Below the pieces are notes generated by a model. It was not told the DNA's origin, ran no database searches, and worked only from the letters and a program-made list of their open reading frames with translations. A DNA stretch of 64,000 nt from Steroidobacteraceae bacterium (GTDB lineage: Bacteria; Pseudomonadota; Gammaproteobacteria; Steroidobacterales; Steroidobacteraceae), in contig DATMOK010000027.1 in NCBI GenBank assembly GCA_035568235.1, positions 11,132 to 75,131 on the forward strand. The letters run 5' to 3'. The translations under genes were made by a program, and so were the position numbers. Numbering within the stretch: the first letter of the stretch is position 1; the number at the start of each line of letters is the position of its first letter. This document shows positions 2,895-64,000 of the stretch, one piece after another.

Positions 2895-3581
2895 TCAGTA
2901 GTCCCAGGAATGCGGCCGGTCGCTGAGCGGCGCCACCTGCAGAGCCTTCACGAGCCGCAGCGTCCAGTCGGCGTGATCCGACTCCCCGACCGTGACCTCG
3001 CGCGTGAGATCAGTGTCGTTGTCGCGCATGCGCGGGTGCCAGATCGTGACGCGGTAGCGGCCGCGTGCGACCTCGCTCGACCACGAGCCGTGAGCGTCAG
3101 TGCGTCCGTAGTAGGGCGCGTCCGTGACCACCAGATAGCCGACCATCTCATCGTGAATGTTGCAGCCGAGGGTCACGACCCCGGGCTGATCGAAATGCAC
3201 CGGCGGGTACGGCGTGCCGTGGTAGAGCGGCAGTTGAAAGCGCTTGGCGGCTGAGAACGAGTAGATCTGATGGCTCACCTTGTCCGTATTGGGGAACACG
3301 ACGGTCGAGCCGCTCGGGATCACCAGCAGGTCGGGCTGGAACGCCCGGTTCACCTGGTCCATGACCGCTTTGACCGGCGCGCTCGGACGCGTCGCCCCAT
3401 CGAGCGGAGTGGCGGTCACCACCGCCCCCTGCAGCGGCTTGCTGTCGGATGTGCGCACGGTGATTACCAGGCTGGCGGCGGCCGTAGCGTGCGCGGCGAG
3501 CAGTGCCAGCAGGCACGCTGGCGCCGATGTGACTCGGCTCACTCCATTTCGACGTGCCGGAGGTCTCATTCCCGCACTCAT
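2895..3581 (-). CDS. Secreted cupredoxin-like protein with a type-1 copper ligand pattern (proteins of this kind are often annotated 'methylamine utilization protein')
   Basis: It has an N-terminal signal sequence (ACLLALLAAHATAAA). The ligand-like pattern is SHQIY ... GCNIHDEM (His, Cys-x2-His-x2-Met). It is co-oriented with the barrel gene, which begins 44 nt downstream of its stop. Confidence 0.7.
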   Translation of the reverse strand: MSAGMRPPARRNGVSRVTSAPACLLALLAAHATAAASLVITVRTSDSKPLQGAVVTATPLDGATRPSAPVKAVMDQVNRAFQPDLLVIPSGSTVVFPNTDKVSHQIYSFSAAKRFQLPLYHGTPYPPVHFDQPGVVTLGCNIHDEMVGYLVVTDAPYYGRTDAHGSWSSEVARGRYRVTIWHPRMRDNDTDLTREVTVGESDHADWTLRLVKALQVAPLSDRPHSWDY

Positions 3582-3639
3582 GTCCTCGCTCCCTGCGCCG
3601 CGGGACGCCTACGATGGGGAAGGGATTGCAACCCGTATT

Positions 3640-6061: not shown

Positions 6062-6985
6062 TCAACCACCCAGCAGCTGATCCACGCGCCGCCGGTATTG
6101 CAGCAGCAGCTCGGCGGCGAAATCGGCGAACACGCGGATGCGGACGGAGTGGCGCAGCGCGCTGCGGCACACGACCAGGAGCGGCGCACCCGGCGCCGAC
6201 CACTCGGGCAGCACCACCTGCAGCCGGCCGGCAGCGAGTGCCTCCGCCACCATCAGGTCGATCGACTGCACGATGCCGACGCCGCGCACCGCCGCAAGTA
6301 TCCGCGCCTCGACGGAGTTGAATGAGACGCTGAACGGCAGCTGCAGCGCTCGCCGTACGGTGCCGCGCTGGAACAGCCACTTGGAGGGGCGATGGCTGGT
6401 GCTCGAGAGATGGCCGATGAGCTTGTGGCGGCGCAGCTCGTCGGGGTCGGCCGGTATGCCGTGCTGGCGCAGGTACTCCGGGGCCGCGCAGGTGATGAGC
6501 CGCGTGGTCACGATCGGCCGCGCGATCAGGTGGGGCTCCTTGACGGGACCGGCCCGCACCACGAGATCAACACCCTCCTCGATGAGGTCGATCACGCGGT
6601 CGTTGAGCTGCACTTCCAGATGCAGGTCGGGATAGCGCTGCGTGAAGCGCGGCAGCGCCGGAATCAGCAGCGCGCGGCCGAACGCCTCCGGTACGTCGAC
6701 CCGCAGCCGTCCCTGCACCGCGAGGCGCGAGCCGCGCACCGCCTCATCGGCCGCCTCGAGCTCGGCGAGGATGCGCTGGCAGCGCGTCAGGTACTCGGCG
6801 CCGTCGCTGGTGAGCCCGACGCGCCGCGTGGTGCGGTGGAGCAGCTGGCAGCGCAAGTGCCGTTCCAGCTCGGCGAGCTGGGTGCTGACCACGGCCCGTG
6901 ACAGTCCGAGGGCATCGGCGGCGCGGGTGAACGAGCGCAGCTCCGCCACGCGCACGAAGCTGCGCATGCAGACCAGTTGATCCAT
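6062..6985 (-). CDS. LysR-family transcriptional regulator
   Basis: The N-terminal wHTH (FVRVAELRSFTRAADALGLSRAVVSTQLAELE) and the LysR substrate-binding-domain length (307 aa) fit the family. Confidence 0.9.
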   Translation of the reverse strand: MDQLVCMRSFVRVAELRSFTRAADALGLSRAVVSTQLAELERHLRCQLLHRTTRRVGLTSDGAEYLTRCQRILAELEAADEAVRGSRLAVQGRLRVDVPEAFGRALLIPALPRFTQRYPDLHLEVQLNDRVIDLIEEGVDLVVRAGPVKEPHLIARPIVTTRLITCAAPEYLRQHGIPADPDELRRHKLIGHLSSTSHRPSKWLFQRGTVRRALQLPFSVSFNSVEARILAAVRGVGIVQSIDLMVAEALAAGRLQVVLPEWSAPGAPLLVVCRSALRHSVRIRVFADFAAELLLQYRRRVDQLLGG

Positions 6986-47362: not shown

Positions 47363-50300
47363 CTACTTGGTGATCGAGTAGACGAGGTCCGCGCCGCGCG
47401 CGGTGCCGAGCTCGGTTTTGATGACCCAGTGGTCGCCGAGCGTGTAGCGGAGCTTGAGGGTGTTCAGCGTCTCGGTGATGCTCACGCCGTAGCTCACGTA
47501 CAGGCGCGGCGTGAGATAGTGGCCGAGCACCAGCGAGGTCTCGTTGGCGATCGGGTCGGTTTCGAGGCTGACATCGGGCAGGCCGACGCGTTGGCCGAGC
47601 TGCGCGGCGAGCAGCGCGGCACCCTGGCCGAGCGCTGCATTGCCCGCGGTCTGTGCCGACTGCGGCGAGCCACCCGAGAGGATGAGCGACACGATCTGTG
47701 ACTGCGGCAGCGGCGGGTCGGAGAAGAACGACATGCGCGGCTGCTGCAGCGTGCCGCGCACGTTGATACCGGCGGTCACGTCCGGGAACTCCTTGATGGC
47801 GCGCAGATCGATGCCCGGGTCATCGACCGCCCCACCGGTGAATATCAGCCGGCCGCGCTGGATGTCCAGCTTGCGCGCGTACGCGAGGTACTTGCCGTCG
47901 GCCACCGACAGCTCGCCGGTCGCGCGTGTGATCGCGTCGTAGCCGCTCCTGATGGTGACGGCGCCGGTGAGGCGGCCGGTGAGCCCCGAGGTGTCCACCG
48001 TCACCTTGTCGCCGAGGGTGAGCGTGATGGTGCTCATCACCTCGAAGCGCTCGGCGGGATTTTCCGGCTCGCTGCCGACGATCACCTCGTCCGGCGAGGT
48101 GCGCACCGCGTTGGTGATGTCCTTGGGTTGGATCTTCGCGAACGGCACCGTCACCTTGCCGGTCACCTCGATGCGTCTGCCCTGAACGTCGAAGTCGAGG
48201 TTCGGCGAGGCGTCGATCTGCGCCTCGGGAGTATCCGCTACCCGCAGGCTCGTGCCCTCGAGGTGGAATTTGCCGTACGGCAGCAGGTTGTGCCACTCGA
48301 GATGACCGTTCGCGGCCGCGCTGCCCGCGCCCGCGTGCGCGCTGCCTTTGAAGTCGAGGCCGCCGTTGTCGAGGTTTACCTCGAGCGCCGCCTGGCGCAG
48401 AGCGAGATTCACCTGGTAGAGGTCGAGCTCGCCGTTGACGACTTTCAGTGTGCCGTTCATGAGCGGCGCGCCGAGTGTGCCGCTGATGTTCACGTCGGTG
48501 TGCAGCTGGCCCGAGGCGCGGTCGATATCGGGGAAGTACAGCGACAGCAGGCCGAGATTCGAGGTCTCAGCGTGCAGCGCGCCGCTGAGCGGCATGTCCT
48601 GCCAGCGCGGGCTGCCGCGTTGCGCATCGACGCGCGCGCGGATGGTGCCGACGTCGCCGTTCTCGAGTACCGCGGCGACGCTGACTGCCTCGGGCGTGGC
48701 GCTCGCGGTCACGGTCCCCGAGCCGATGCGGCTGTGCTCGATCTTGCGGCTTGCCAGTCGGTGCGACAGCACCGCGTCGGCGAGCTGGGCGCGAAGCGTT
48801 CCCGTAATGGGGGTGTGCGCGCCGCCGGCTGCCCGTGCCAGCAGGTCGACCGTGCCCTGGTACTGCACGGCCGGTGTCATGCCGGCGGTGAGCGCCGACA
48901 GCGGCAGCTGGTTGCTCATCAGCGTGGCGGACCAGTGCTGCGGGCTCCAGTCGGCATCTGCGCACACGCTGCCCGGCGTTCCGGCGAGACACAGCCACTC
49001 GACCCGCAGCCGCTCGGGCGATGCCAGCAGGCCCACCGGATGCTCGAGGGCGAGATCAAGCGCATCGCGCCCCTTCACGGCGAGCGAATCGAGCTGACCC
49101 TGGAAGAGGCGGTGCGCGTAGGCGCCGTCGGCCTGCGCGGTCAGCGCGAGTCCCTGGGCCTCGGCCTCGAGATGCACCCGGGTGCTGGCCGGCGGACCGT
49201 TCACGGTGAGGGCCGCCTTGTCGAGCGTGTGGCCCGCGTAGCTCAACCCACTCAGGCGCGCGTCGATCTTCGCTGCGTGCGTCGGGTCGCTGGCGTCGAA
49301 GTCGACGTCCGCGTCCAGCTGCCCGAGATCGACCCCCGCGTAACTCAGCCCGCGGCCGTGGGCGCTGGCCGCGACCGCCGGCTCCGCGGCGGTACCGCGC
49401 ACCGTGCCGGAAGCGTCGAGCTGGCCGCGGCCGCCGACGCCGAGCAGGCTTAAGTCGGAGCTGGCGATCGCGAAGCGCAAATCGAGTCTGTCAGCCGCCT
49501 GTCCGTCGAGCGAGAGCGTCGTGCCGCCGAGCGCCACACGTACGCGCTCGAAGCGCCAGCCGTCGGAGGAGTGCTCGAGCGATCCGCCGCCGCTCGCCCG
49601 CGTGCCGCGCAGCTTGCCGCTCAGGGATTGAATCGTGACCCGAAGCTCCCCCTTGGGATCGAAGCCGCGCCCCGAGGCATTGAGTGAGAAGTTCAGGCTC
49701 CCCGGGAGATCGGCGCGCAGCGTCGCCGGATTGATGCCGGTGAGCTGCCCGCTCACCGACCAGGTGTCGTGCGGCGTCCACTCCACCGCGCCCGTGACTT
49801 CGGCATGGCCGTCGAAGAGATCCACAGCGGCGTGCTCGAAGGCGAAGCTGTCCTTGCCGAGAGTGCCCGTGACCTCGATGGGGCTCGGGGGGAGCCCGGC
49901 GGCGCTCGCCTCTCCTTTCGCGTGCACGTGGTAGGGCAGCAGGCCCTCGAGCGTGAAGCTTCCCGAGGCGCTCTTCAGCGCCGGGTCGTGCCCGGTGAGC
50001 GGCCAGCGAAAGTCCTCCCAGTTGCCCGCGATGTCGAGTCGCGGGCCGTTGGGAACGATGGTGAAAGTGCCCGAGCCCTGCGCGCGTGCACCCGAGGCCT
50101 CGTGACGCGCCTCCATGTGCCGCGCGGTGAGCGTATGGCCGGCAAACGCACCCTCGAAGCGCGCCTGGAAGCTGCCGGCACGCAGCCCCGTCGGGTCGAC
50201 GGTGCCACGGCCGGTGAAGCCGTGCTCATCCCAGCCGACCGCCAGGTGCGCTGTCATCACCCCGAGCGGCCCGGAGATGCCCCAGGCCCGCAGGTCGAAG

Positions 50301-51082
50301 TTCTGTACCGCTGCATTGCCCTGGATGTGCCAGCGGTTGGTGAGATCGAGCGCCGCCCCGGTGAAGTCGGCGCGGAACGGGCTGAGCGCGTGCGCCGTGA
50401 GCATGAGCGCTTTGAGGTTGCCCTTTGCCGTGCCGTCGACGCTCCAGGCGGGCTGTCCGGCCGGTGCCCAGTCGAGGTGTCCCTGGCCCTCGATCCCGAG
50501 CGGATCGCGCGCGCGCAGCTCGCCGATCGCGTTCACGTCGGCGTCGAAGAGGCGGCCCTGTGCCTGGAAGAAGCGGATGGTGCGATGGCGCAGCACCGCG
50601 ACGGTCGTGATGTGCGTGGCCTCGAGCCGCACACCGTTGTACACCGTGAGCACCGCGTCATCGACCGTGGCGTGCTCAGCGCTGATCAGCAGCCAGCGCG
50701 GCACGAACGGCGGCATCGGCGACGGTGTGGGCGGATGGGTACGCCGCTTAACCTCGATGAGCGCGGTGTGGACCGAGGCCTCGGGGGAGCGGATGGTCTG
50801 CAGCAGCAGCGGGGCGAGCGCCACGCGCCCGTCTATCCCGGTGAACGTCAGGTGTACGAGCTCGTGGTCGATCTCGACGCGATCGACGTGCAGCCCGCTC
50901 GCGATCGTGCCGCGCACGCCGACGATCGTGAGGCGCACGGGACCTAAGTGCTCGGGGATATGCCGCACCACGAACTGCAGTCCCGACTGCGTGAACACGG
51001 CGCACACGACCAGCGTCGCGGGCACCACCACCACGATGAGCACCAGCAGGCAGGCGGCGAAGAGGATCAGCAGGCGGCGCAT
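47363..51082 (-). CDS. tamB: Translocation and assembly module inner-membrane subunit TamB (DUF490)
   Basis: The ATG at 51082 gives an N-terminal TM anchor (MRRLLILFAACLLVLIVVVV). The 1239-aa protein is beta-rich with a DUF490-like C-terminus. It lies 13 nt downstream of tamA. Confidence 0.9.
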   Translation of the reverse strand: MRRLLILFAACLLVLIVVVVPATLVVCAVFTQSGLQFVVRHIPEHLGPVRLTIVGVRGTIASGLHVDRVEIDHELVHLTFTGIDGRVALAPLLLQTIRSPEASVHTALIEVKRRTHPPTPSPMPPFVPRWLLISAEHATVDDAVLTVYNGVRLEATHITTVAVLRHRTIRFFQAQGRLFDADVNAIGELRARDPLGIEGQGHLDWAPAGQPAWSVDGTAKGNLKALMLTAHALSPFRADFTGAALDLTNRWHIQGNAAVQNFDLRAWGISGPLGVMTAHLAVGWDEHGFTGRGTVDPTGLRAGSFQARFEGAFAGHTLTARHMEARHEASGARAQGSGTFTIVPNGPRLDIAGNWEDFRWPLTGHDPALKSASGSFTLEGLLPYHVHAKGEASAAGLPPSPIEVTGTLGKDSFAFEHAAVDLFDGHAEVTGAVEWTPHDTWSVSGQLTGINPATLRADLPGSLNFSLNASGRGFDPKGELRVTIQSLSGKLRGTRASGGGSLEHSSDGWRFERVRVALGGTTLSLDGQAADRLDLRFAIASSDLSLLGVGGRGQLDASGTVRGTAAEPAVAASAHGRGLSYAGVDLGQLDADVDFDASDPTHAAKIDARLSGLSYAGHTLDKAALTVNGPPASTRVHLEAEAQGLALTAQADGAYAHRLFQGQLDSLAVKGRDALDLALEHPVGLLASPERLRVEWLCLAGTPGSVCADADWSPQHWSATLMSNQLPLSALTAGMTPAVQYQGTVDLLARAAGGAHTPITGTLRAQLADAVLSHRLASRKIEHSRIGSGTVTASATPEAVSVAAVLENGDVGTIRARVDAQRGSPRWQDMPLSGALHAETSNLGLLSLYFPDIDRASGQLHTDVNISGTLGAPLMNGTLKVVNGELDLYQVNLALRQAALEVNLDNGGLDFKGSAHAGAGSAAANGHLEWHNLLPYGKFHLEGTSLRVADTPEAQIDASPNLDFDVQGRRIEVTGKVTVPFAKIQPKDITNAVRTSPDEVIVGSEPENPAERFEVMSTITLTLGDKVTVDTSGLTGRLTGAVTIRSGYDAITRATGELSVADGKYLAYARKLDIQRGRLIFTGGAVDDPGIDLRAIKEFPDVTAGINVRGTLQQPRMSFFSDPPLPQSQIVSLILSGGSPQSAQTAGNAALGQGAALLAAQLGQRVGLPDVSLETDPIANETSLVLGHYLTPRLYVSYGVSITETLNTLKLRYTLGDHWVIKTELGTARGADLVYSITK

Positions 51083-51095
51083 GAGGTACCGCCGC

Positions 51096-52955
51096 TCACA
51101 GCTTGGGCGAGAAGTTGATGTGCAGGCGTGGGCCGGCACCGGGGTTATTGATGGGCTGCGCCACGTCGATGCCGAGCGTCAGCCACGGCGTGCGGAACCG
51201 CACCCCGACGCCCGCCGAATAGAACAGCTTGGTGCCGAAGTGATCGAAGGCATTGCCGTAGTCGACGAAGGTCGCGATCCCGAGGTTGCGCGGCAGGTCG
51301 TGGACCACCTCCACCGTGCCGGTGATCAGATCCTTGCCTCCGACCCGGATGTAGCCGCCGATGCTCTGGCAGGTGCCATTCGCGGTGAGCAGGAACTTGC
51401 CGTTCGGACCCACGGTGCAGAACGGCTCGGTGGGCGAGAGCTGATTGTAGTAGAAGCCGCGCACGCTGTTGTCGCCGCCGGCGAAGAAGCGATAGACCGC
51501 GGGCAGCTCCGAGAACCGCGACACCAGGCTCGCCCCCGCCTCCTCGCGCAGCAGCAGGTGCCACGGGCCGCCGAGGTGGAACACGTTCTCGAGCTGCGCG
51601 TGCAGCTGGATGAAGTTGGAGTCCGACCCCAGCACCGCGTCCGAACCGCGCAGCGTCGCGACGAAGGGGTATTCGAACAGCGGCTCGCCGAGATAGTCCT
51701 TGGGCACCGAGGCGAGATCCACCTCCGGCACCAGCAGCCGGTCGGTGGTCGTGCCGTTGATGTCCTCGCTGGTGGTGCGCACCGCGAACAGCTTCCACAC
51801 GTGCTGCCAGCCGTTGGATACCACGGTGAAGCTCGGCCCCGCCGACAGGGTATAGGCGGTCACGTCGGCGAGGATCTGCTGCTCGATGCTGCCATTGAGC
51901 GCGAAGTGCTCGAGCGCCGGGTCGCCCACCGGGAAGATGTAGGCGGTCTGGACCGCGTAGCGCGTGATCTGGGCGAACTGCAGCTGGGCGTTGAAGCTCT
52001 GACCGTTGTCGTTGATCCGATGGTCCTCGAAGCCGAGCGTGGCGCGGGCGCCGGTGTCGGTGGCGTAGCCGGCACCGACCGAATAGCGATGCCGGCGGTT
52101 GGGGTCGGCGTGGATGTCGACCGCCACGCGATGCGTGGCGGGATCCGGAGTGCCGGGGCGTACCTCGAGGTTGGCGAAGTACTGCGTGTCATCGAGCGCG
52201 AACTGCGTGCGCAGCACCTGCGTGAGATCGAACAGGTCGCCCTCGTGGTAGCGCAGGTAGCGCCGCACCAGGCTCTCCTTGATCACGTGCTGCTCGACCG
52301 TGGTGGGTCCGAAGCGGTAGCGCTCGCCGGTCTCCATCTCGAGTGCGATGCTCGAGGTGTAGTGCGGCGGGTCGACCAGCAGCTCGTTGCGGGTCAGCTT
52401 GGCGTCGAAGTAGCCGTAGGTGGCGGCGGTACGCTGCAGGTCGGCCTTGAGCGCATCGTACGCGGGCTGGTTGAGGCGCTCGCCGCGCGTCAGCAGCGGG
52501 TGCGAAAGGATGCGCGTAAAGAGCGGATCGTTCTCGCCCCGACCGGTCACCCTGACGATGATGTTGCCCACCAGCACCGGCCGCCCCGGCTTGATGTCGA
52601 CGACCACGCGCCACTCGCCCTTGCCGAGATCGGTGACGGTGGAGTCGACCTGCGGCTCGTAGTAGCCGAACGGGCGCAGCGCCTCCTGCACCTCGCGCTC
52701 TACCCGGTTGTGCAGCCGCTCGATCATGTCGGCGTTGAGCTCGACGCCGCCCTTCTTGTAACGCTCGAAGGAGAGGTATGCGAGCACGTTGGAGCGCAGC
52801 GTCTCGTCCACGCCGCGCACCTCGACGTTGACGCCGGCGGCCGCCCACGCCGCCCCGGCCGCGAGACTCACGAGCACGGCGAATGCAGCCACGGCGGCCA
52901 CCGGACCTCGCCGGTGCCTGCGGCGAGCCCGAGGCTTGACTGTGCGCTGCGTCAT
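51096..52955 (-). CDS. tamA: Translocation and assembly module outer-membrane subunit TamA (Omp85 family)
   Basis: It has a signal peptide, POTRA-like repeats and a C-terminal Omp85 barrel ending INFSPKL. Confidence 0.9.
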   Translation of the reverse strand: MTQRTVKPRARRRHRRGPVAAVAAFAVLVSLAAGAAWAAAGVNVEVRGVDETLRSNVLAYLSFERYKKGGVELNADMIERLHNRVEREVQEALRPFGYYEPQVDSTVTDLGKGEWRVVVDIKPGRPVLVGNIIVRVTGRGENDPLFTRILSHPLLTRGERLNQPAYDALKADLQRTAATYGYFDAKLTRNELLVDPPHYTSSIALEMETGERYRFGPTTVEQHVIKESLVRRYLRYHEGDLFDLTQVLRTQFALDDTQYFANLEVRPGTPDPATHRVAVDIHADPNRRHRYSVGAGYATDTGARATLGFEDHRINDNGQSFNAQLQFAQITRYAVQTAYIFPVGDPALEHFALNGSIEQQILADVTAYTLSAGPSFTVVSNGWQHVWKLFAVRTTSEDINGTTTDRLLVPEVDLASVPKDYLGEPLFEYPFVATLRGSDAVLGSDSNFIQLHAQLENVFHLGGPWHLLLREEAGASLVSRFSELPAVYRFFAGGDNSVRGFYYNQLSPTEPFCTVGPNGKFLLTANGTCQSIGGYIRVGGKDLITGTVEVVHDLPRNLGIATFVDYGNAFDHFGTKLFYSAGVGVRFRTPWLTLGIDVAQPINNPGAGPRLHINFSPKL

Positions 52956-53072
52956 CTCGACGTGCAGTCAGGAAGAGGAGGGAATTCTAGAGGCTCGTGA
53001 GCACACTCGCTCGGCGCTCTTTATATGAGAGCGGGCGGCGCCGCGGCGGTTCCGTGCCCGCGCCGCGATCCG

Positions 53073-53855
53073 CTACGGCCACTCCCCCGCGTTCAGCTGG
53101 AAGTCAGCTTCACCGGCTGGCTCGCCCGCGGCATCGAAGCGCCGCTCGCCGAGGTACAGTCCGCCGTCGGGCTCAAGCAGCACGACCGTCGAGCAGCGCG
53201 TCCCATAGGTCGGATGGACAACGAAGGGCGCCGACAGGATCCGGTCCCAGTCGCGCGGCAGCCCGCCCCGCGGCAGCTGCGCGCCGCCATCGACCGCCTG
53301 GGTGCGGTCGGCGAGCAGGGCGAAGAGGTCGGCGGCTGCCGCCTGCGGCTGCTCGAGCCAGTGCCTGAAGCGCGCCTTGACGCGCAGCAGTTTCGGCCAC
53401 GGCGTATCGAGCAGCTCGTTCGACAGTCCGTACACTCCCGGCGGCAGAGCGCGCGCGAACGGCTGGGCGCGGTTCGAGCCGTACCACAGCGCCTCGCGAT
53501 CGGCGAGCAGCAGGTTGAAGCCGGAGTAGTCGCCGGCGAGCGCCTCGAGGTGGCGGAAGAACTCTGCGGGGCGCGCCGTTCCGGTGAGGTAATGCGGAAT
53601 GAGATTGCCGCGCGAGGGAGCCTGCGGCCGCGGCGCCTGCAGCTCGCGGAAGTTGGTCACGACGCCAAAGCGTCGCGCCGGATCGAGCGCCAGCCAGGCG
53701 CCGTTGGCGCGCAGGTCGCGGCCGGCGAGGATGCCGGGCGGCTGCCGCCACTTGCCGAGCGGTGCCGCGGGCCGCGCGTGGTACTCGTCGCGGTTGGCGG
53801 CCACCACGAGCCGATAGCGCGGGTGTGCCTCCCAGGCAAGCACCAGCAGGCACAC
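53073..53855 (-). CDS. NRDE family protein (TANGO2/DUF833-like)
   Basis: The N-terminus is MCLLVLAW...VVAANRDE. The start codon is GTG. Confidence 0.85.
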   Translation of the reverse strand: MCLLVLAWEAHPRYRLVVAANRDEYHARPAAPLGKWRQPPGILAGRDLRANGAWLALDPARRFGVVTNFRELQAPRPQAPSRGNLIPHYLTGTARPAEFFRHLEALAGDYSGFNLLLADREALWYGSNRAQPFARALPPGVYGLSNELLDTPWPKLLRVKARFRHWLEQPQAAAADLFALLADRTQAVDGGAQLPRGGLPRDWDRILSAPFVVHPTYGTRCSTVVLLEPDGGLYLGERRFDAAGEPAGEADFQLNAGEWP

Positions 53856-53862
53856 GCGCGGC

Positions 53863-54756
53863 CTACCCGCCCTCGAGCCAGCCGGAAATCAACCGCCAGG
53901 AGATCGAGTGCGAGGGCGGTGCGAGTGCCTCGCCCGAGGTGAGCTGCGCGCGCGTGAACCAGCGCGCGTCCTCGAGCTCACCGCCCACCCGCACCGCGCT
54001 CCCCAGGGCGGCGCTCGCGCGGAAGCCGAGCATCAGCGAAGAGGGGAACGGCCAGGGTTGGGATGAGTCGTAGCGCGCGTCCGTGACGCGCACGCCGGTC
54101 TCCTCCTCGACCTCGCGCGCCACCGCGTCCTCGAGGCTCTCGCCCGGCTCGACGAAGCCGGCGATGGTCGAATAGCGGCGCACCGGCCAGCTCGCCTGGC
54201 GCCCGAGCAGTGCCCGCTCGCCATCCGACACCAGCACGATGATCGCCGGGTCGATGCGCGGGAAGAACTCCTCGGCGCAGTCCGGGTTGCTGCAGTTGAG
54301 GCAGTGGCCGCCGCGGGTCGGCTTGGTGGGCGCGCCGCACACGCCGCAGTGCTGCGTGCGCGCGCGCCACACGGACAGCGCGCGCGCATACGCCAGCAGG
54401 CCCGCCTCGTCGGCGGGCAGCAGCGCCGACAGCGGCCGCAGCTCCTCGAAACGGGTGCCGGCGGGCGCCTCCGCGTCGCGCTCGCGCGGCAGCGTGATCA
54501 GCACGCAGCGCGCGCCGCCGAACCAGCCGAGCAGCGTCAGGCTGGCGGCGGGCGCGGAGCGCACCAGCGGCACCTCGCGCGTCAGCAGCGCCGCGCGCGG
54601 CGGGTCGCCGCTCATGAGTTGCGCCGTGTCGCGCGACACCAGGTAGCGGCTGCCGGTGTCGGCCCAGGCCGCCGCGATCCACTCCGGGTCCTCGCGCGCC
54701 TCGGCGCGCCGCTCGAGGTAGGGGCCTGCGAAGAAGTTGGGCTCGGGAGGATTCAC
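53863..54756 (-). CDS. nudC: NAD(+) diphosphatase (NADH pyrophosphatase)
   Basis: The zinc ribbon is CGVCGAPT...CLNCSNPDC. The Nudix box is GFVEPGESLEDAVAREVEEETGV. The NudC-specific SQPWPFPSS motif is present. The start codon is GTG. Confidence 0.85.
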   Translation of the reverse strand: MNPPEPNFFAGPYLERRAEAREDPEWIAAAWADTGSRYLVSRDTAQLMSGDPPRAALLTREVPLVRSAPAASLTLLGWFGGARCVLITLPRERDAEAPAGTRFEELRPLSALLPADEAGLLAYARALSVWRARTQHCGVCGAPTKPTRGGHCLNCSNPDCAEEFFPRIDPAIIVLVSDGERALLGRQASWPVRRYSTIAGFVEPGESLEDAVAREVEEETGVRVTDARYDSSQPWPFPSSLMLGFRASAALGSAVRVGGELEDARWFTRAQLTSGEALAPPSHSISWRLISGWLEGG

Positions 54757-54796: not shown

Positions 54797-55387
54797 TCAG
54801 TGTGGGCGCCCGCCATCGGCCTGCGGCGCACCGCCCGGCGCCGGCGTGCGCGGCGCCTGCACGCACTGCTGGCAGCGCGTGACGCGCGCCGGGAAGCGCT
54901 CGGTGACCATGACGCTGCCGCAATCCGTACAGGCGCCGAGGCGCAGCAGCTCGCCGCTCGAGAGCGCGCACGCCAGGAACACCGCATGCTCGAAGGAGAT
55001 CTGCGCCGCCGGAATTACGGCGCGATAAGCCTCGAACGCCTCGCACAGCGCCGCGCCGCGCTGCAGGCCCGGCAGCGGCACCGCGGCCTCGGCGGCCTGC
55101 GCCGGCAGCACGCCAAGCAGCATCAGCACGCTCGCCAGCGCCGCGCTCTCCTGCTGCAGACGCAGCGAGCGTGTGAAGTAGGCGACCTGGTGCGGCGACT
55201 TGCCGCGATGACGCGGCAGGTGCAGTCGTGCGTGGCGTACGTAGGAGCGGTACAGCTTGCGGATGCGGTCGTCCGACAGTCCGGTCCAGGCACGGATCGT
55301 GTGCGTGCGCGCCTCATGGACCAGGAAGCGCAGCGCCAGCTCCATGCGCAGCCGCTCACGGTGATAGCGATCGTCGGAAATGCGCAT
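54797..55387 (-). CDS. FlhC-family (FlhC/SetC/AcaC-like) zinc-binding transcriptional activator subunit
   Basis: 196 aa. The N-terminal LALRFLVHEARTHTIRAWTGLSDDRIRKLYRS...HRGKSP parallels E. coli FlhC [33 protein letters not shown]...PKGMLP. The C-terminal CTDC-x15-CQQC matches the FlhC Cys4 zinc site in spacing. Confidence 0.75.
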   Translation of the reverse strand: MRISDDRYHRERLRMELALRFLVHEARTHTIRAWTGLSDDRIRKLYRSYVRHARLHLPRHRGKSPHQVAYFTRSLRLQQESAALASVLMLLGVLPAQAAEAAVPLPGLQRGAALCEAFEAYRAVIPAAQISFEHAVFLACALSSGELLRLGACTDCGSVMVTERFPARVTRCQQCVQAPRTPAPGGAPQADGGRPH

Positions 55388-55421
55388 GCGGCGGTTCCGG
55401 CAGGGGAGGGTTGCGTTTATT

Positions 55422-55477
55422 TTGCTGAAAATTCACCAAAACACAATTGCTGAAATTTGGTAAAAAATCACCAAATT
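55422..55477. promoter_or_regulatory. AT-rich repeat cluster in the divergent FlhC-like/FlhD-like intergenic region (candidate operators/promoters)
   Basis: TTGCTGAAA occurs twice (55422-55430 and 55447-55455). A(T/A)TCACCAAA occurs twice (55431-55440 and 55466-75). An 8-bp inverted repeat, AATTTGGT-8 nt-ACCAAATT, lies at 55454-55477. Confidence 0.4.
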
Positions 55478-55536
55478 CTTGGATGGCTGGCGGGCGGCGC
55501 TCGGCTACCATTGCGCATCGCTGCGGGGAGGGGGCC

Positions 55537-56268
55537 ATGCTGTTGCACTGCGGGATCGAGGCCGCGCACGCGGCCGGGGACATGCGCCGGGGCACCTCGT
55601 GGCTGCGCCCGGAGACGCTCGAGACGCTCGCGGAGCTCAATGAGCTCGGCCTGGCGCTATTGCTGCAGGAGGCATCGCTCCCGGGGGCGCTGCACGGCAC
55701 GCTGGCCGCGCCGCTCCTGCGCGAGGTCGGGACGCTGCGCGCGATCCTCGAGCCGCTGGCGCTGCGGCGTGCCGCCGCCTGTCCGTACCTGCTGTTCGAT
55801 GTGGGGTTTGCCGCCCTGGCACGCTGGCGGCCCGCCGCGCCCGGGCAGGTGGGCGATGCGGACGCCTCGGTGTGCAGCGCGTTCTTCACCGTGCCCGCCA
55901 CCGTCGAGGTGGCGCGGCTGGTCCTTACATTCGGCTGGCACCTGGCGCGCACGCAGCTGGCCGCGGCGCGACTGCTGCTCGGCATGCCGCCGGCGTGTGC
56001 CGGGCTCATCGGCGCCATGACGCTGCGCCGCGTGCATGCCCTCGCGGAGCGGCATCCGGAGTGGCTCCGCCCGCGGTGGCCCGCGCGGCCTCAGGTATGG
56101 CGGCTGCTACTGTCCGCGGCGGCGGCGGGAGAGGCGCGCTCCCTGGAGCAGGCGCAGATGCACGGTCTCACGCTGCTGGCCGCCGAGGCACGGGCGGCCG
56201 CGCGCCTTACTTCGCCAGCTGGAACAGCGTCGACGGCACCCAGCCCTCGTTCCCCAGCTCGTCCGTGA
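55537..56268 (+). CDS. Hypothetical protein with FlhD-like segment(s); candidate partner of the FlhC-like protein
   Basis: I chose the ATG at 55537, which is preceded by GGGGAGGGGG, over the TTG at 55447. Third-position GC is high. The stretch AAARLLLGMPPACAGLIGAMTLRRVHALAERHPEWLRPRW aligns without gaps to E. coli FlhD [40 protein letters not shown]. The last ~60 nt overlap the convergent gene. Confidence 0.5.
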   Translation: MLLHCGIEAAHAAGDMRRGTSWLRPETLETLAELNELGLALLLQEASLPGALHGTLAAPLLREVGTLRAILEPLALRRAAACPYLLFDVGFAALARWRPAAPGQVGDADASVCSAFFTVPATVEVARLVLTFGWHLARTQLAAARLLLGMPPACAGLIGAMTLRRVHALAERHPEWLRPRWPARPQVWRLLLSAAAAGEARSLEQAQMHGLTLLAAEARAAARLTSPAGTASTAPSPRSPARP

Positions 56269-57136
56269 CCTTCCACCAGATCCCGTCCTTGTCGCCGCTC
56301 GGGTAGAGCGTCATGCCGGGATCGAGGTCGCGTACCACCGGCGACTTGAGGTTGGCGGCGCTGTACATCTTGCCGGGCTTGGCCATCGTGACCGACTGGC
56401 TGACGTTGTCGGCCTTGGCGTTGAGGCTCATGCCCTTGATGTCGTTCACGAGCTTCGTGTAGGAGTCGAGGTAGGCCATGGTCACGACCTGACCGATCTC
56501 GGTGTTGGCGTAGCTGCTCGCGCCCGCGGCGGCGAAGCCGCCGAAGAAGGCACCGCCGCCTGCGCCCCAGCCGAGATCGGTCTTCTTGTAGTGCCCCTGC
56601 TCGAGCGCCACCTGCTCGGTGGAGCGCACATCGGTGAGGGTCAGCACGACATCGGCGGTCTTGCTCTTCAGGCTGACGCCGCCCACCACGGCGCCGGCGA
56701 CGCCACCGAGCATGCCGCCGAGGACGCCGCCGATGCGGCTGCCGCCGGAGTTATTGTTCTTGGTGACCACGTCGGGCACCAGCACGTAATCAGCAGCCTT
56801 CATCTGCCCCTTGCCGATGTTCGAGCCGCCGCGCATCTCGCCGGATGAGGCGAGCGCGCGTTCCTTCTCCGCGGCCGCCAGGCCCTTACCCCGATCGAGC
56901 AGCGTGAAGCACTTCGACTGCGACACGAACACCTTGATCAGCGCCTCGGGCGAATCGAGGTTGTACTGCAGCCACCACTTATTCTCGGGCTCGGTCACTG
57001 CGAGCGTGCCGATCTTCTTGTCGCAGGTCGGGATCTGCGGCGGCGGCGCATCGGCCGCCCAGGCGAGGGCGTTCGCGCCGAGTCCAGTGAGCGCGAGACA
57101 GGCGAGCATCGGGATGCGGAGCGTGGTCGGCAGCAT
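56207..57136 (-). CDS. CsgG/HfaB-family periplasmic/outer-membrane protein with a C-terminal SH3-like domain
   Basis: I chose the ATG at 57136 (GGAGA Shine-Dalgarno); a signal peptide follows. CsgG-like blocks are IGTLAVTEPEN, CFTLLDRGKGLAAAEKERAL and ADYVLVPDV followed by a Gly-rich loop. The C-terminal WWKVTDELGNEGWVPSTLFQL is SH3b-like. Confidence 0.7.
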   Translation of the reverse strand: MLPTTLRIPMLACLALTGLGANALAWAADAPPPQIPTCDKKIGTLAVTEPENKWWLQYNLDSPEALIKVFVSQSKCFTLLDRGKGLAAAEKERALASSGEMRGGSNIGKGQMKAADYVLVPDVVTKNNNSGGSRIGGVLGGMLGGVAGAVVGGVSLKSKTADVVLTLTDVRSTEQVALEQGHYKKTDLGWGAGGGAFFGGFAAAGASSYANTEIGQVVTMAYLDSYTKLVNDIKGMSLNAKADNVSQSVTMAKPGKMYSAANLKSPVVRDLDPGMTLYPSGDKDGIWWKVTDELGNEGWVPSTLFQLAK

Positions 57137-57368
57137 GGTGGCTTCTCCCCAGTTTTTTCTAGTCCAAGCGGCGGCGCTGTTCAGCGCCACCTCGGGTGGC
57201 GCGGTAGTTTAGGGCGAAGTCCGCCCTCTGGGGTAATCGCCGCGGCCGGCGGCCGGCCCTTGCGCCCGCATCCCTGAGGGTGCCTGCACCGCGAAATCAC
57301 CGCTGTCCGTTTTTGACCGGCACGTGTCACATGCTGCGGTGGTCAAGCTGCCGCGGTTATCGCACCAT

Positions 57369-59741: not shown

Positions 59742-60668
59742 CTAGTAGATGGCGAGCTCGCGACGGCCGGAGGAGTCGCGCGCGCCGCGGTACATGCCCT
59801 CGGTGCTGAAGTCCATGACGATATGGCCGCCGCGGTCGACCGCGATCAGGCCGCCATCGCCGCCGAGGCTCTTGAGAACCTCGTGCAGCAGCTCGGCGAT
59901 GGCCTGCGCGAGTGTCAGCCCGCGGTACTCGACCGCCGCGCACACGTGATGCGCGGCTACGGCGCGGATGAAGTATTCCCCGTGCCCGGTGGCCGACACC
60001 GCGCACACGCCATCCTTGGCGTAGGTCCCGGCACCGATGATGGGCGAGTCGCCGACCCGCCCGGGACGCTTGTTGGTCATGCCGCCGGTGGAGGTGGCGG
60101 CGGCGAGGTGGCCCTGGGCGTCGCAGGCCACCGCGCCCACCGTGCCCCCGGGCGGCTCGCTCGCTTCGGTTGGCGGTACCAGGTCCGACACCCGCTCGCC
60201 GCGCTGCTCGCACTCGAGCTGCATCTGCCGCTCGGGGGTACGGAAGTAATGATTGGCGATGAGCGCCATGCCTTCCTCGAGCGCGAACTCCTCGGCCCCC
60301 GGGCCGACGAGCAGCACGTGCCGCGACTTCTCCATCACGCGCCGTGCGAGCTCCACGGGGTTGCGCACGTGGCGCACCGAGGCGACCGCGCCGGCGCGCA
60401 GATTGCGGCCGTCCATGATGGCCGCGTCGAGCTCGGCGGCACCCTCGCGGGTCAAGGCGGCCCCGCGGCCGGCGTTGAACATCGGTTCATCCTCGAGCAT
60501 GCGCACCGCCTCGGTCACCGCATCGAGGCTCGAGCCGCCGCGCTCGAGCACGCCGTAACCAGCGTCGAGCGCGGCCTCGAGGCCGGCGCGATAGCGCTGC
60601 TCGCGTTGCGGCGACAGCGTCGCGCGCGGCACGGCGCCGGCTCCTCCGTGGATGGCGATCGCGTACAT
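59742..60668 (-). CDS. iaaA: Isoaspartyl peptidase / L-asparaginase (Ntn-hydrolase, plant type), cytoplasmic paralogue
   Basis: The sequence has IAIHGGAG, NAGRGAALT and the autoprocessing GTVGAVA site. No signal peptide is present. A GGGAGG Shine-Dalgarno precedes the start. Confidence 0.9.
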   Translation of the reverse strand: MYAIAIHGGAGAVPRATLSPQREQRYRAGLEAALDAGYGVLERGGSSLDAVTEAVRMLEDEPMFNAGRGAALTREGAAELDAAIMDGRNLRAGAVASVRHVRNPVELARRVMEKSRHVLLVGPGAEEFALEEGMALIANHYFRTPERQMQLECEQRGERVSDLVPPTEASEPPGGTVGAVACDAQGHLAAATSTGGMTNKRPGRVGDSPIIGAGTYAKDGVCAVSATGHGEYFIRAVAAHHVCAAVEYRGLTLAQAIAELLHEVLKSLGGDGGLIAVDRGGHIVMDFSTEGMYRGARDSSGRRELAIY

Positions 60669-60682
60669 CGAGCCTCCCGCCT

Positions 60683-61717
60683 TCAGTTCGTGTCGCGGTA
60701 CATGGCGATCTCGCGCCGTCCGCGTGAGTCGCGCACGCCGCGGTGCATGCCGGCGCTGTTGAAGTCCATGGCGATGTTACCGTCGCGGTCGAGGGCGATC
60801 ACGCCGCCCTCGCCCCCGGTGCGCTTGAGCTTGCCGTGGATCATGGTATCGACGGCGCGCGAGAGCGACACGTGCTGGTACTGCATCATGGCGCAGATGT
60901 CGTACGCCACTACCTGGCGGATGTAGAACTCGCCCTGGCCGGTACCGGAGACCGCGCACGACTCATCGGCGTAGGTGCCGGCGCCGATGATCGGGGTGTC
61001 GCCGATGCGCCCGTAGAGCTTGTTGGTGAGGCCGCCGGTGGAGGTCGCCGCAGCGAGGTGCCCCTGGGCATCGAGCGCCACAGCCCCGACCGTGCCCATC
61101 CCCTTCGGTGCCGACGGCCGCATCGGCAGCGGCGCGGTGGGCTCGCGGGCGTCTGCCGAGCGCTTTTCTTCCTCGAGCTCGCGCATGCGCTCCGGGGTGA
61201 TGCAGTAGCTCTCGGGCACCAGTACCACACCTTGCGCCAGCGCGAACTCCTCGGCCCCCTGACCGGCGAGCATCACGTGCGGCGACTTCTCCATCACCAG
61301 ACGCGCGAGATCGATCGGATTCTTGACGTGATGCAGTTCCGCCACCGCGCCCGCGCGCCCGGCGGTGCCGTCCATGATGGCGGCATCGAGCTCGCAGATG
61401 CCGTCGTGGTTGAGTACCGCGCCCTTGCCGGCGTTGAACTGCGGGTCGTCCTCCATGGTGCGCACCGCCGTCCCCACCGCATCCAGCGCCGAGCCGCCGC
61501 GCTCGAGCACCGCGTAGCCGGCATCGAGCGCCGCACCGAGTCCGGTGCGGAACGAGGCCTCGCGCTCGGGTGTCATGTGGGCACGCTCGATGACGCCCGC
61601 GCCGCCGTGGATGACGATCACCACCGGGTGCTCGGCAGCCTCGAGCGGTGCGCAGCCGAGAAGTGCGCTGGCGGCGAGTAGCAAAGCGCGCAGCGAATGC
61701 GCCGGCGGTCGCGACAT
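60683..61717 (-). CDS. Isoaspartyl peptidase / L-asparaginase paralogue with an export/lipoprotein signal
   Basis: The ATG at 61717 gives MSRPPAHSLRALLLAASALLGC (lipobox-like), followed by VIHGGAG, NAGKGAVL and GTVGAVA. The rest of ORF 60683-63943 is antisense to pyruvate carboxylase. Confidence 0.85.
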   Translation of the reverse strand: MSRPPAHSLRALLLAASALLGCAPLEAAEHPVVIVIHGGAGVIERAHMTPEREASFRTGLGAALDAGYAVLERGGSALDAVGTAVRTMEDDPQFNAGKGAVLNHDGICELDAAIMDGTAGRAGAVAELHHVKNPIDLARLVMEKSPHVMLAGQGAEEFALAQGVVLVPESYCITPERMRELEEEKRSADAREPTAPLPMRPSAPKGMGTVGAVALDAQGHLAAATSTGGLTNKLYGRIGDTPIIGAGTYADESCAVSGTGQGEFYIRQVVAYDICAMMQYQHVSLSRAVDTMIHGKLKRTGGEGGVIALDRDGNIAMDFNSAGMHRGVRDSRGRREIAMYRDTN

Positions 61718-61804
61718 GGCGTCCCCTAAAGCAGCTATGATCATTGCGTCCGCGACCCGCGCCTGCCGCGGTCCTCGCGTCGCTCTCAAGTGGTGAATCT
61801 TAAG

Positions 61805-64000
61805 GTGAAAGCCGCCCCGTCGCAGCGGATCCGCAGCCTCCTGGTCGCGAACCGGGGCGAAATCGCCATTCGCGTCATGCGCGCGGCGAACGAGCTCGGC
61901 CTGCGCACCGTGGCGATCTACTCGCAGGAGGACCGCTTCTCGCTCCACCGCACCAAGGCGGATGAGGCGTACCTCGTCGGCCGGGACAGGAAGCCGGTCG
62001 AGGCGTACCTCGACATCGAGGATGTTCTGCGCATCGCGCGCGAGGCGCAGGTCGATGCCATCCATCCCGGCTACGGCCTGCTGTCGGAGAACCCGCAGCT
62101 GGCGCGCGGCTGCGCACGCGCCGGGGTCCTCTTTATCGGGCCCGAGCCCGACACCATGGAGCTGCTCGGCAACAAGGTCGCCGCCCGCGAGCTCGCGGTC
62201 TCGGCCGGCGTGGCGGTGATGCCTGCTACCGGAGCCTTGCCGGCGGAGCTCGCCGAATGTGCGCGGCTGGCGCACGAGATCGGCTACCCGGTGATGATCA
62301 AGGCGAGCTGGGGCGGCGGCGGGCGCGGCACGCGCGCGGTCGACGACGAGGCGCAGCTTCGCGAGCTGCTGCCGCTCGCGCGCCGCGAGGCGCGCACCGC
62401 CTTCGGCAACGACGAGGTGTACCTCGAGAAGCTCATCGTGCGGGCGCGACACGTCGAGGTACAGATCCTCGGCGATGAGCACGGCAACCTCGTGCACCTC
62501 TACGAGCGCGACTGCAGCATGCAGCGGCGTCATCAGAAGGTCGTGGAGCGCGCGCCGGCGGTATTCCTGCGCGAGGCGCAGCGCACCGAGCTCACCATGG
62601 CGGCGCTCGCCATCGGCCGCGCGGCGCGCTATCGCAACGCCGGCACGGTGGAGTTCCTCGAGGATGCCGACAGCGGGCGCTGCTACTTCATCGAGGTCAA
62701 CCCGCGTATCCAGGTCGAGCACACGGTGACCGAGGAGGTCACGGGCATCGACCTCGTGAAGGCACAGATCCGCATCGCCGGCGGGGCGCGCATCGGTACG
62801 CCCGAGAGCGGCGTGCCGCCGCAGGAGCAGATCCGCGTCTCGGGACACGCGCTGCAGTGCCGGATCACGAGTGAGGATCCGGAGAACAACTTCATCCCCG
62901 ACTACGGCAAGATCAGCGCCTACCGCAGTCCCGCAGGCTTCGGTATCCGCCTCGATGCCGGCACGGCCTACACCGGCGCGATCATCACCCGCTCCTACGA
63001 CTCGCTGCTCGTCAAGGTGACCGCGTGGGCGCCGACGGCCGAGGAGACCATCGCCCGCATGCACCGCGCGCTCGCCGAGTTTCGCATCCGCGGCGTCGTC
63101 ACGAACCTGCACTTCCTCGACCAGCTGATCACGCACCCGCGCTTCGCCTCCGGCGACTACACGACGCGCTTCATCGACGCGACGCCCGAGCTGTACCACT
63201 CGCCGGCGAAGCGCGACCGCGCTACGCGCCTGCTCGCCGGGCTCGGCACCACCATAGTCAACGGCCACCCCGAGGTTGCCGGGCGCGCGCGGCCGGCGCC
63301 GCAGCAGGCGCCGCCGCGGCTGCCGCCGGGAATCCTGCCTGCCCCGGCGCCCGGCACGCGGCAGAAGCTCGAGCAGCTCGGCGCCGAGGGCTTCGCGCGC
63401 TGGATGCTGAATGAGCAGCGCGTGCTCCTCACCGACACCGCGATGCGCGATGCGCACCAGTCGCTGCTCGCCACGCGGCTGCGCAGTATCGATCTCACCA
63501 CCATCGCGCCCTACTACGCGAGCCTCGCGCCGCAGCTGCTGTCGCTCGAGTGCTGGGGCGGAGCTACCTTCGATGTGGCACTGCGCTTTCTGCGCGAGGA
63601 CCCGTGGCAGCGGCTCGCGCAGCTGCGCGAGCGCGTCCCCAATATCCTGCTGCAGATGCTGCTGCGCTCGGCGAATGCCGTCGGCTACGCCAACTATCCG
63701 GACAACGTGCTGCGCTTTTTCGTGGCGCGCGCGGCGGCGCGCGGCATCGACCTGTTCCGCATCTTCGACTGCCTCAACTGGGTGGACAACATGCGCGTCG
63801 CGATCGATGCGGTGCGCGAGTCCGGCAAGCTGTGCGAGGCGGCCATCTGCTACACCGGGAACCTGAGCGATCCGCGCGAGAAGAAATACACGCTCGATTA
63901 CTACCTCAGGCTGGCGCGCGAGCTGAAAGCCGCCGGCACCCACATTCTCGGCATCAAGGACATGGGCGGGCTGTGCCGGCCGCGCGCCGCGCAGCTGCTG
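61805..64000 (+). CDS. pyc: Pyruvate carboxylase, single-chain type (3' end lies outside the window; absent from the ORF track because no stop codon is reached)
   Basis: My own translation from GTG 61805 is VKAAPSQRIRSLLVANRGEIAIRVMRAANELG... The biotin carboxylase motifs are KASWGGGGRG and EVNPRIQVEHTVTE. The carboxyltransferase domain follows (LLTDTAMRDAHQSLLATR). Alternative GTG starts are at 61790 and 61793. Confidence 0.9.
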   Translation, partial: MKAAPSQRIRSLLVANRGEIAIRVMRAANELGLRTVAIYSQEDRFSLHRTKADEAYLVGRDRKPVEAYLDIEDVLRIAREAQVDAIHPGYGLLSENPQLARGCARAGVLFIGPEPDTMELLGNKVAARELAVSAGVAVMPATGALPAELAECARLAHEIGYPVMIKASWGGGGRGTRAVDDEAQLRELLPLARREARTAFGNDEVYLEKLIVRARHVEVQILGDEHGNLVHLYERDCSMQRRHQKVVERAPAVFLREAQRTELTMAALAIGRAARYRNAGTVEFLEDADSGRCYFIEVNPRIQVEHTVTEEVTGIDLVKAQIRIAGGARIGTPESGVPPQEQIRVSGHALQCRITSEDPENNFIPDYGKISAYRSPAGFGIRLDAGTAYTGAIITRSYDSLLVKVTAWAPTAEETIARMHRALAEFRIRGVVTNLHFLDQLITHPRFASGDYTTRFIDATPELYHSPAKRDRATRLLAGLGTTIVNGHPEVAGRARPAPQQAPPRLPPGILPAPAPGTRQKLEQLGAEGFARWMLNEQRVLLTDTAMRDAHQSLLATRLRSIDLTTIAPYYASLAPQLLSLECWGGATFDVALRFLREDPWQRLAQLRERVPNILLQMLLRSANAVGYANYPDNVLRFFVARAAARGIDLFRIFDCLNWVDNMRVAIDAVRESGKLCEAAICYTGNLSDPREKKYTLDYYLRLARELKAAGTHILGIKDMGGLCRPRAAQLL

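Follow-up and report, generated by a model that had tools for sequence, protein, structure and literature searches.

A pair of divergently transcribed genes encoding relatives of the two subunits of FlhDC was analysed in a 64,000-nucleotide stretch of DNA from a Steroidobacteraceae bacterium (GenBank assembly GCA_035568235.1, contig DATMOK010000027.1, positions 11,132 to 75,131 of the forward strand), hereafter termed the window. The minus-strand gene encodes an FlhC-like protein (C-like) and the plus-strand gene an FlhD-like protein (D-like); as the sequence-only reading of the window had proposed, the two open reading frames (ORFs) point away from each other, and they are separated by 149 nucleotides that are strikingly A+T-rich for this genome, the window as a whole having a G+C content of 69%. 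This intergenic region carries two palindromic boxes and putative promoter elements, the positions of which are collected in Table 1 together with those of the genes. In public annotation, the C-like and D-like proteins are described as “hypothetical” or, occasionally, as “FlhC”.

The C-like protein was found to match the Pfam FlhC model PF05280 (E=0.02, 15.1 bits; cut-off, 27) and the NCBIfam FlhC equivalog model NF009365 (E=0.02, 14.7 bits; cut-off, 216), and the PF05280 match is collinear and extends from end to end, with C-like residues 14–180 placed on profile positions 12–165 of 173. A homologue search with this protein retrieved 5468 proteins at E≤1e-3; the best 120 matches are 66–96% identical to it, and those that bear a name are proteins of metagenome-assembled genomes (MAGs) labelled “Steroidobacteraceae bacterium”. 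All 45 aligned homologues match PF05280, the best at E=8.8e-6, and the two top PDB matches of the family profile are both FlhC chains (8j56_C, 1.3e-3; 2avu_E, 0.055). The N-terminal part contains a highly conserved block, HEARTxTIRxWTGLSDDRIRKLYRSY. Toward the C-terminus, the four cysteines C153, C156, C172 and C175 are invariant in the 45 chromosomal homologues and are also kept in homologues of the type found in integrative and conjugative elements (ICEs), and the two CxxC pairs align with the FlhC zinc ligands in 2avu_E and 8j56_C. The FlhC-like nature of this protein and its four-cysteine zinc site, both noted in the sequence-only reading, were thus borne out, but the spacing between the CxxC pairs, which had been called native, falls one residue short of that in E. 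coli FlhC. On sequence criteria, the C-like protein is a remote but genuine, full-length FlhC homologue.

The conserved start of the D-like gene is the ATG at 55537; a longer version beginning at the TTG at 55447 is not conserved. The G+C content at third codon positions (GC3) of the plus-strand ORF is 0.86–0.90, a composition of coding type. An alternative minus-strand ORF at 55657–56055, which had been picked by a crude GC3 filter, was rejected on account of the GC3 of the plus frame, its deep homology and its confident fold. The window D-like protein alone has no Pfam or NCBIfam match, and its relationship to FlhD becomes visible through its family. With a profile built from close homologues, E. 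coli FlhD is reached only at E=0.58, but in exactly the stretch that had first been aligned by eye to the FlhD core helix region, where 11 of 38 residues are identical to E. coli FlhD (a manual count on the profile alignment). An exhaustive profile search retrieved at least 1217 cluster representatives at E≤1e-3 (clusters at 50% identity), and family members are mostly 200–240 aa in length, so that the long architecture is the family norm. Two alignments were used, a close one (A2) and a diverse one (A4), the latter consisting of 96 members that are 25–54% identical to the window protein. The A4 profile matches only three PDB sequences, all of them FlhD (8j56_A, 8.6e-8; 1g8e, 2.6e-4; 5hxg, 6e-4), and its positions 115–201 are aligned to residues 16–101 of 8j56_A. 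The Pfam FlhD model PF05247 is matched by 26 of the 96 members, and hhalign aligns the C-terminal half of the D-like protein with E. coli FlhD at E=6.6e-5. Profile checks with the Pfam models support FlhC-likeness below threshold for the C-like protein and FlhD-likeness through the family for the D-like protein.

Structure prediction agrees with these matches. The AlphaFold2 (AF2) model of the full-length D-like protein has a predicted local distance difference test score (pLDDT) of 84.8 and a predicted template modelling score (pTM) of 0.80, and a Foldseek search of the PDB with it gave a single high-probability match, FlhD chain 2avu_B (probability, 0.87), with a template modelling (TM) score of 0.72 normalised to the target and a root-mean-square deviation of 2.9 Å over 102 columns; by sequence mapping, this match falls in the C-terminal half. 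When the whole model was considered, full-length Foldseek matches were all noise (TM about 0.15), and the domain-sized FlhD match alone is meaningful. Because the family profile matches FlhD structures, family members match PF05247 and the predicted model matches 2avu_B, the C-terminal half of the D-like protein, approximately residues 113–225, is assigned as an FlhD domain. The protein is thus unlike single-domain FlhD (about 105–120 aa), since only this part of its 243 residues corresponds to the FlhD domain. The tail that follows, LTSPAGTASTAPSPRSPARP, is kept in many homologues, and others end soon after “LLAAEAR”; for this reason, its conservation seems best explained by constraint from the SH3 domain encoded on the opposite strand, and the tail would not be a functional part of the protein.

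The distribution of the pair was surveyed in one genome per GTDB species. At least 170 of these genomes encode a relative, and the best 80 loci were analysed (related loci are designated here by L numbers); all 80 come from MAGs of uncultured Steroidobacteraceae, Gammaproteobacteria or Proteobacteria. The D-like gene is adjacent to and divergent from the C-like gene in 77 of the 80 loci. Two of the remaining three have no contig room upstream of the C-like gene, and in the third (L076, 7685–10531) the pair is split by an insertion, the two genes lying ~1.6 kb apart and the nudC-TANGO2-tamA block standing in inverted orientation some 5 kb downstream. Neither ORF is disrupted in any evaluable locus, and the median ratios of nonsynonymous to synonymous substitution (dN/dS) are 0.23 for the C-like gene and 0.29 for the D-like gene, which indicates that both genes are under purifying selection. 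One MAG (SMAG_U7584, DATBYD01) contains two C/D pairs on separate contigs (L041 and L079), with C-like proteins 71% and 64% identical to that of the window; either a paralogue or mixed binning could account for this. In L086/L087 (8968–9855), a chromosomal member that is only distantly related, a 295-aa gene with a DcsG_N domain (PF27100) lies between the C-like and D-like genes.

The intergenic repeats observed in the window were found to be conserved in related loci. The two boxes, each 20 bp in length, follow the pattern TTTGG-N10-CCAAA and lie 35 bp apart from centre to centre, which is the commonest spacing among relatives, seen in 36 of 59 box pairs. When up to one mismatch was allowed, the 64-kb window contained just two matches to the pattern, both of them in the C/D intergenic region, compared with a chance expectation of 0.23. 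In 1.36 Mb of related loci, 141 matches were found, all but a handful of which are likewise C/D intergenic. The consensus of the intergenic alignment reads ...ATGGTA...(29)...AATTTGGgaaTTTTTtaCCAAATTT..c.gaTTG.gTTTTGG..aATTTttcCCAAaAtg, and the portion corresponding to the putative C-like promoter, TTG.gTTTTGG..aATTTttcCCAAaAtg, is conserved across 36 loci. On the D-like side, ATGGTA or ATCGTA (reverse complement, TACCAT or TACGAT) is found in related loci at a constant distance from box 1 and is a candidate −10 element. With these assignments, box 1 would be centred about 53 bp from both transcription starts. In L076, where the pair is split, two boxes stay by the D-like gene (8517 and 8627) and one by the C-like gene (9943); in L026 (9624–9965) and L027 (180–531), there are two tandem copies of the complete two-box unit, spaced by about 290 bp, and the intergenic region of L026 is 445 nucleotides long. 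The distant chromosomal members L085 and L086 also carry boxes. Because boxes outside this region are almost absent from the window and from the 1.36 Mb of related loci, autoregulation of the pair through the two palindromes appears likely.

The two palindromes might instead be the operators of a different regulator, with the C/D pair acting on distant targets only. Many homodimeric regulators typically use 20-bp palindromes, whereas the sites bound by E. coli FlhD4C2 are longer and bipartite, and the boxes are linked to the pair by co-location. However, the boxes travel with the pair and are kept by each gene upon splitting or duplication, they occur at no other site in the window or in the 10-kb flanks of the 80 loci, and the ICE-borne relatives described below have an element of their own at their C/D, type IV secretion system (T4SS) and alpA promoters. 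Operators of a different regulator are accordingly regarded as rather unlikely.

The N-terminal half of the D-like protein has no Pfam or PDB sequence match, either with the window protein or with family profile and member searches. The proposal that it contains a second FlhD-like stretch, and that two FlhD units are fused in tandem in the D-like protein (a pseudo-dimeric FlhD), giving a complex whose stoichiometry differs from that of FlhD4C2, drew on letters that are indeed present, and the helix order of the N-terminal half is similar to that of the C-terminal half. The N-terminal half also aligns collinearly with E. coli FlhD over 83 columns, but weakly and without significance (P=0.065). 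Comparison of the two halves by hhalign gave a probability of about 1% with both the A2 and A4 alignments, and an AF2 model of residues 1–112 alone (pLDDT, 70.8) had no FlhD match in Foldseek. Within the full-length model, blocks of the N-terminal half reach pLDDT values of 89–98; because they are so confidently modelled in this context, the N-terminal half probably packs on the FlhD domain, which counts in favour of the tandem reading. Given the lack of statistical support from hhalign and from AF2 with Foldseek, a tandem FlhD is considered improbable.

Clustering divided the D-like family into the clade of the window and a second clade, every placeable member of which adjoins mobile-element genes (six loci). 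In four of these (L082, L083, L088 and L091), the neighbouring genes form a trbC-virB3-virB4-...-virB11 operon, accompanied by AlpA in L082 and L088 and by an integrase in L082; the other two (L089 and L090) adjoin an integrase and Lamassu-like cargo, with AlpA in L090. The C-like proteins encoded next to the D-like genes of this sister clade are 39–48% identical to the window C-like protein (hhalign probability, 100%), and the two genes are divergent in five of the six loci. A metagenome scan was seeded with the ICE-type C-like proteins, and the gene context was counted in loci of 8 kb or more: 7 had a T4SS, 24 had NudC/TamA, 1 had neither and none had both. A T4SS, an integrase or AlpA was found in 0 of the 24 nudC-linked loci. 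A tblastn search of the PLSDB plasmids with an ICE-type C-like protein gave no match. The sequence-only reading had placed the pair outside any mobile-element context, which holds for the window locus but not for the family.

An element of ~30 nucleotides is shared by three kinds of site in the ICE loci: the T4SS promoter, the region between the C-like and D-like genes, and the DNA upstream of alpA (L088, 8815–8846, 9912–9943 and 10771–10802; L082, 8749–8778 and 10762–10791). Such recurrence would be the pattern expected of a master activator with feedback on its own expression, as is described for AcaCD and BisDC. Since the sister clade sits beside VirB/Trb operons with AlpA and integrases, the family also appears to be a mobile-element regulator like SetCD and AcaCD, and its mobile clade most likely acts, by analogy with these, as a transfer master activator of P-type conjugation genes. 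Some further features of these loci were observed. Between the C-like gene and the T4SS operon there is a small gene of about 103–113 aa that could be assigned to no family (L082, 8909–9220; L089, 586–897; L083, 3916–4257); its homologues were detected in most T4SS-type metagenome loci, and the mobile module might thus have three components. In L089 (2816–6268) and L090 (2536–6171), the C/D module is followed by a three-gene cassette (CTD7, MC3 and LmuB_C; Lamassu-like defence) and an integrase; in L089, the cassette and integrase lie beside Iron_traffic, HhH-GPD/NUDIX_4 (MutY-like) and AsmA genes, and the arrangement looks like an integration site.

The surroundings of the window pair are of a different kind. 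In most of the 80 genome loci, NudC, TANGO2 and TamA are encoded on the same strand after the C-like gene, and an isochorismatase and a DJ-1/AraC regulator lie past the D-like gene. The nudC gene follows the C-like gene on the same strand within 400 nucleotides in 51 of 73 evaluable genome loci and in 29 of 44 non-T4SS metagenome loci, and lies further away in 16 of the 73. The nudC-tamAB linkage is kept even by distant members of the window's clade (30–38% D identity). In L001 (10597–12953), a GGDEF-EAL protein and a 282-aa protein of no known family are encoded between the C-like gene and nudC, and insertions at this junction are also found elsewhere. A CsgG-like gene, which is convergent with the D-like gene in the window, stands beside the pair in about a third of related loci. 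The neighbours named in the sequence-only reading, nudC/NRDE/tamAB on one side and a CsgG-like gene on the other, were confirmed. The locus is syntenic across about 80 genomes and is accordingly not the degraded ICE that the sequence-only reading had named as a possible refutation.

The remaining genes of the window are of housekeeping type (DNA polymerase I, arginine biosynthesis with ArgR, TamAB, DsbA, asparaginases, an ammonium transporter, a TonB receptor and one tRNA-Arg), and, in agreement with the absence of che, fli, mot, tra and integrase genes noted earlier, no flagellar, chemotaxis (che), mot, transfer (tra), T4SS, AlpA or integrase gene was found among the Pfam-scanned genes of the 64 kb. 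Two tandem Asparaginase_2 genes occupy 59742–63943; the 1086-aa ORF among them (60683–63943) matches Asparaginase_2 in its last ~310 residues only, so that an upstream over-extension of the listed ORF is probable. A large dCache-HAMP-GGDEF-EAL signalling protein (3280–6033) is encoded beside a LysR regulator (6062–6985) and is unrelated to the C/D pair.

Table 1. Features of the C-like/D-like locus and of its neighbours, in window coordinates.
Feature	Position	Strand	Basis and remarks
FlhC-like subunit gene	54797..55387	-	196 aa; sub-threshold PF05280 and NF009365 matches, collinear; conserved N-terminal block
Putative zinc-ribbon codons CxxC-N15-CxxC (C153, C156, C172, C175)	54863..54931	-	Invariance; alignment to FlhC structures
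Putative C-like core promoter	55419..55446	-	-35 TTGTGT (55446-55441), 16-nt spacer = box 2, -10 CAAAAT (55424-55419); by eye
Palindromic box 2 (TTTGCTGAAAATTCACCAAA)	55421..55440		TTTGG-N10-CCAAA with one mismatch; C-proximal side
Palindromic box 1 (TTTGGTAAAAAATCACCAAA)	55456..55475		Perfect TTTGG-N10-CCAAA; D-proximal side; position conserved in almost all related loci
Putative D-like -10 TACCAT	55506..55511	+	Conservation only
FlhD-like subunit gene	55537..56268	+	243 aa; conserved MLLxCG start, GC3, homologues, AF2 model; functional core ends near 56205
N-terminal helical extension of D-like protein (residues 1-112)	55537..55872	+	Relatives detectable only within family
FlhD domain of D-like protein (residues ~113-225)	55873..56211	+	A4 profile, hhalign, Foldseek
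D-like 3' tail overlapping 3' end of convergent CsgG/SH3 gene	56207..56268	+	62-nt overlap, last ~20 codons
CsgG-like lipoprotein with C-terminal SH3 domain	56207..57190	-	Pfam CsgG 5.9e-8 and SH3_3; convergent with D-like
nudC (NADH pyrophosphatase type NUDIX)	53863..54756	-	Pfam NUDIX, NUDIX-like, Zn_ribbon_NUD; 40 nt downstream of C-like
TANGO2 (NRDE)	53073-53855	-	Pfam; part of downstream array 47363..53855
tamA	51096-52955	-	Omp85/POTRA_TamA called in relative L001; synteny
tamB	47363-51139	-	TamB called in relative L001; synteny

The homology of both subunits to FlhC and FlhD raises the question of whether the pair is a true flagellar master regulator of the Steroidobacteraceae, a divergent FlhDC encoded away from the flagellar genes. 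The single polar flagellum of gammaproteobacteria is normally under the control of sigma-54 activators of the FleQ/FlrA type, not of FlhDC. According to PMC7966939, cultured Steroidobacteraceae either lack motility or bear one polar flagellum; the motility of some of them would agree with a flagellar regulator, but the flagellum of the motile members is of just this kind. In addition, the C-like protein scores 14.7 against 216 bits for the FlhC equivalog, no FlhD equivalog match was obtained, no fla, che or mot gene is present among the Pfam-scanned genes of the window, and the nearest relatives outside the clade are T4SS-linked rather than flagellar. A flagellar role is therefore unlikely, and the pair has very little claim to being the master regulator of flagella in this family. 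It is hardly credible that the pair is merely left over from an integrated conjugative element, in decay and no longer functional, for, although the sister clade is ICE-borne and one MAG has two copies, the ORFs are intact in all evaluable loci with matches in at least 170 species genomes, the median dN/dS values are low (0.23 and 0.29), the placement next to nudC-tamAB does not change even at 30–38% D identity, a T4SS, integrase or AlpA accompanies none of the 24 nudC-linked metagenome loci, and the promoter palindromes are conserved.

The interpretation that we favour, with reasonable but far from complete confidence, is that the pair is a heteromeric regulator of the FlhDC type, belonging to a family with a T4SS-linked and a chromosomal clade, and that the window pair probably binds its own palindromes and exerts feedback on both of its subunits. 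In the proposed mechanism, the C-like protein with its zinc ribbon and the D-like protein, in which the FlhD domain stands behind an extension of ~110 residues, would form a heteromeric transcription factor; the strict co-occurrence of the two genes supports such pairing. The two TTTGG-N10-CCAAA palindromes between its own divergent genes would be the binding sites of this complex. Since box 1 would lie equally far from both starts and box 2 falls inside the putative C-like core promoter, binding may feed back on the expression of both subunits, and transcription reading through past the C-like gene could bring nudC and TANGO2, and perhaps tamAB, under the same control. Co-transcription of the C-like gene with nudC, like any wider regulon, is inferred. 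The mobile clade, residing in integrative or conjugative elements, would serve as the transfer master activator, and the chromosomal clade, including the window pair, is a vertically inherited module of uncultured Steroidobacteraceae and related soil bacteria. The latter is read as an anciently fixed and probably domesticated copy of a conjugation-type activator, the direction of transfer not being established.

Several observations weigh against this interpretation. Neither window protein reaches the curated thresholds for FlhC or FlhD. There is no third box anywhere in the 64-kb window, so that no target beyond the pair itself is pinpointed. A strict sigma-70 promoter and terminator scan of 52.8–57.4 kb found nothing; for this reason the promoter elements were assigned from conservation or by eye, and the terminator result speaks neither for nor against an operon with nudC. 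The palindromes could, as discussed above, be sites of another regulator, and the nudC-tamAB linkage could be an inherited gene order without regulatory meaning. A more specific version of the favoured interpretation, in which a conjugation-type activator was captured by the chromosome and became, throughout a lineage of soil Gammaproteobacteria, a self-regulated switch of host genes, at the least nudC-TANGO2-tamAB (nudC encoding an NAD-cap/NADH hydrolase), with a role that is neither flagellar nor conjugative, is put forward tentatively and is more doubtful than not.

The FlhDC-type heteromeric activators known so far belong to flagellar hierarchies and to a few conjugative elements of clinical bacteria (SetCD, AcaCD and BisDC). 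In the literature, only these three were found as named families, and no paper describing the present pair was found. The window family would thus represent a third, large branch of FlhDC-type activators without literature, characterised by divergent genes and a long D subunit and comprising a mobile clade located by P-type T4SS operons and another that resides stably in the chromosomes of abundant soil bacteria not yet cultured. It offers a concrete test case for the possible domestication of a regulator, and TTTGG-N10-CCAAA provides a defined candidate operator that could be used to predict a regulon in complete genomes.

Compared with FlhD4C2 of Enterobacteriaceae and Burkholderiales (PDB 2AVU and 8J56), the window pair shares the two-subunit design, a C subunit with an N-terminal helical region and a CxxC...CxxC zinc site, and the FlhD fold (8j56_A profile, E=8.6e-8; 2avu_B, TM 0.72). 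It differs in that the genes are divergent, as in the evaluable relatives, whereas flhD and flhC form an operon; the D subunit has twice the length and bears an unrelated extension at its N-terminus; the scores are far under the curated thresholds and there is no flagellar context; and the candidate operators are two short palindromes of 20 bp.

The closer functional parallels are the FlhDC-type heteromeric conjugation activators, for which there are precedents that are autoregulating or class 2 (PMC4207636; PMC7423338). AcaCD of IncA/C plasmids and SetCD of SXT/R391 ICEs are weakly FlhDC-like heteromeric activators, and the sister clade of the window family likewise lies beside conjugation genes. 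AcaD, a protein of 22.8 kDa (PMC4207636), consists of 202 aa in pRA1, and its FlhD-like part, residues 121–178, is C-terminal, as in the window D subunit; consequently, the double length of the D partner, which had been taken as a distinguishing feature of the pair, is not one. In pRA1, acaD and acaC are adjacent on the same strand. The acaDC genes are co-transcribed and control transfer of the mating-pair formation class MPF_F, whereas the genes of the window family are divergent and its mobile relatives are of the VirB/Trb (P-type) class, and AcaC and AcaD are no closer to the window proteins than FlhC and FlhD are (hhalign probabilities, 14% and 5%). In contrast to SetCD and AcaCD, the window copy is chromosomal and without transfer genes.

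BisDC of ICEclc (Pseudomonas), an autoregulatory activator of ICE transfer competence (PMC7423338), resembles the window pair in having an FlhC-like C subunit and a partner “D”. BisD, however, is ParB-like and lacks an FlhD domain, whereas the window D subunit has one, and no ParB match was found in the window proteins or in the 96 D-like members. BisC carries DUF2857, whereas no DUF2857 match was obtained with the C-like proteins (that of the window and 45 homologues); the sole match to this domain was in 1 of the 96 D-like members (E=0.0034). On sequence comparison, therefore, the pair is similar in kind to FlhD4C2, SetCD and AcaCD and, by the curated thresholds, a member of none of them; it is set apart by its gene order, its operator type, the T4SS class of its mobile relatives and the chromosomal location of the window's clade.

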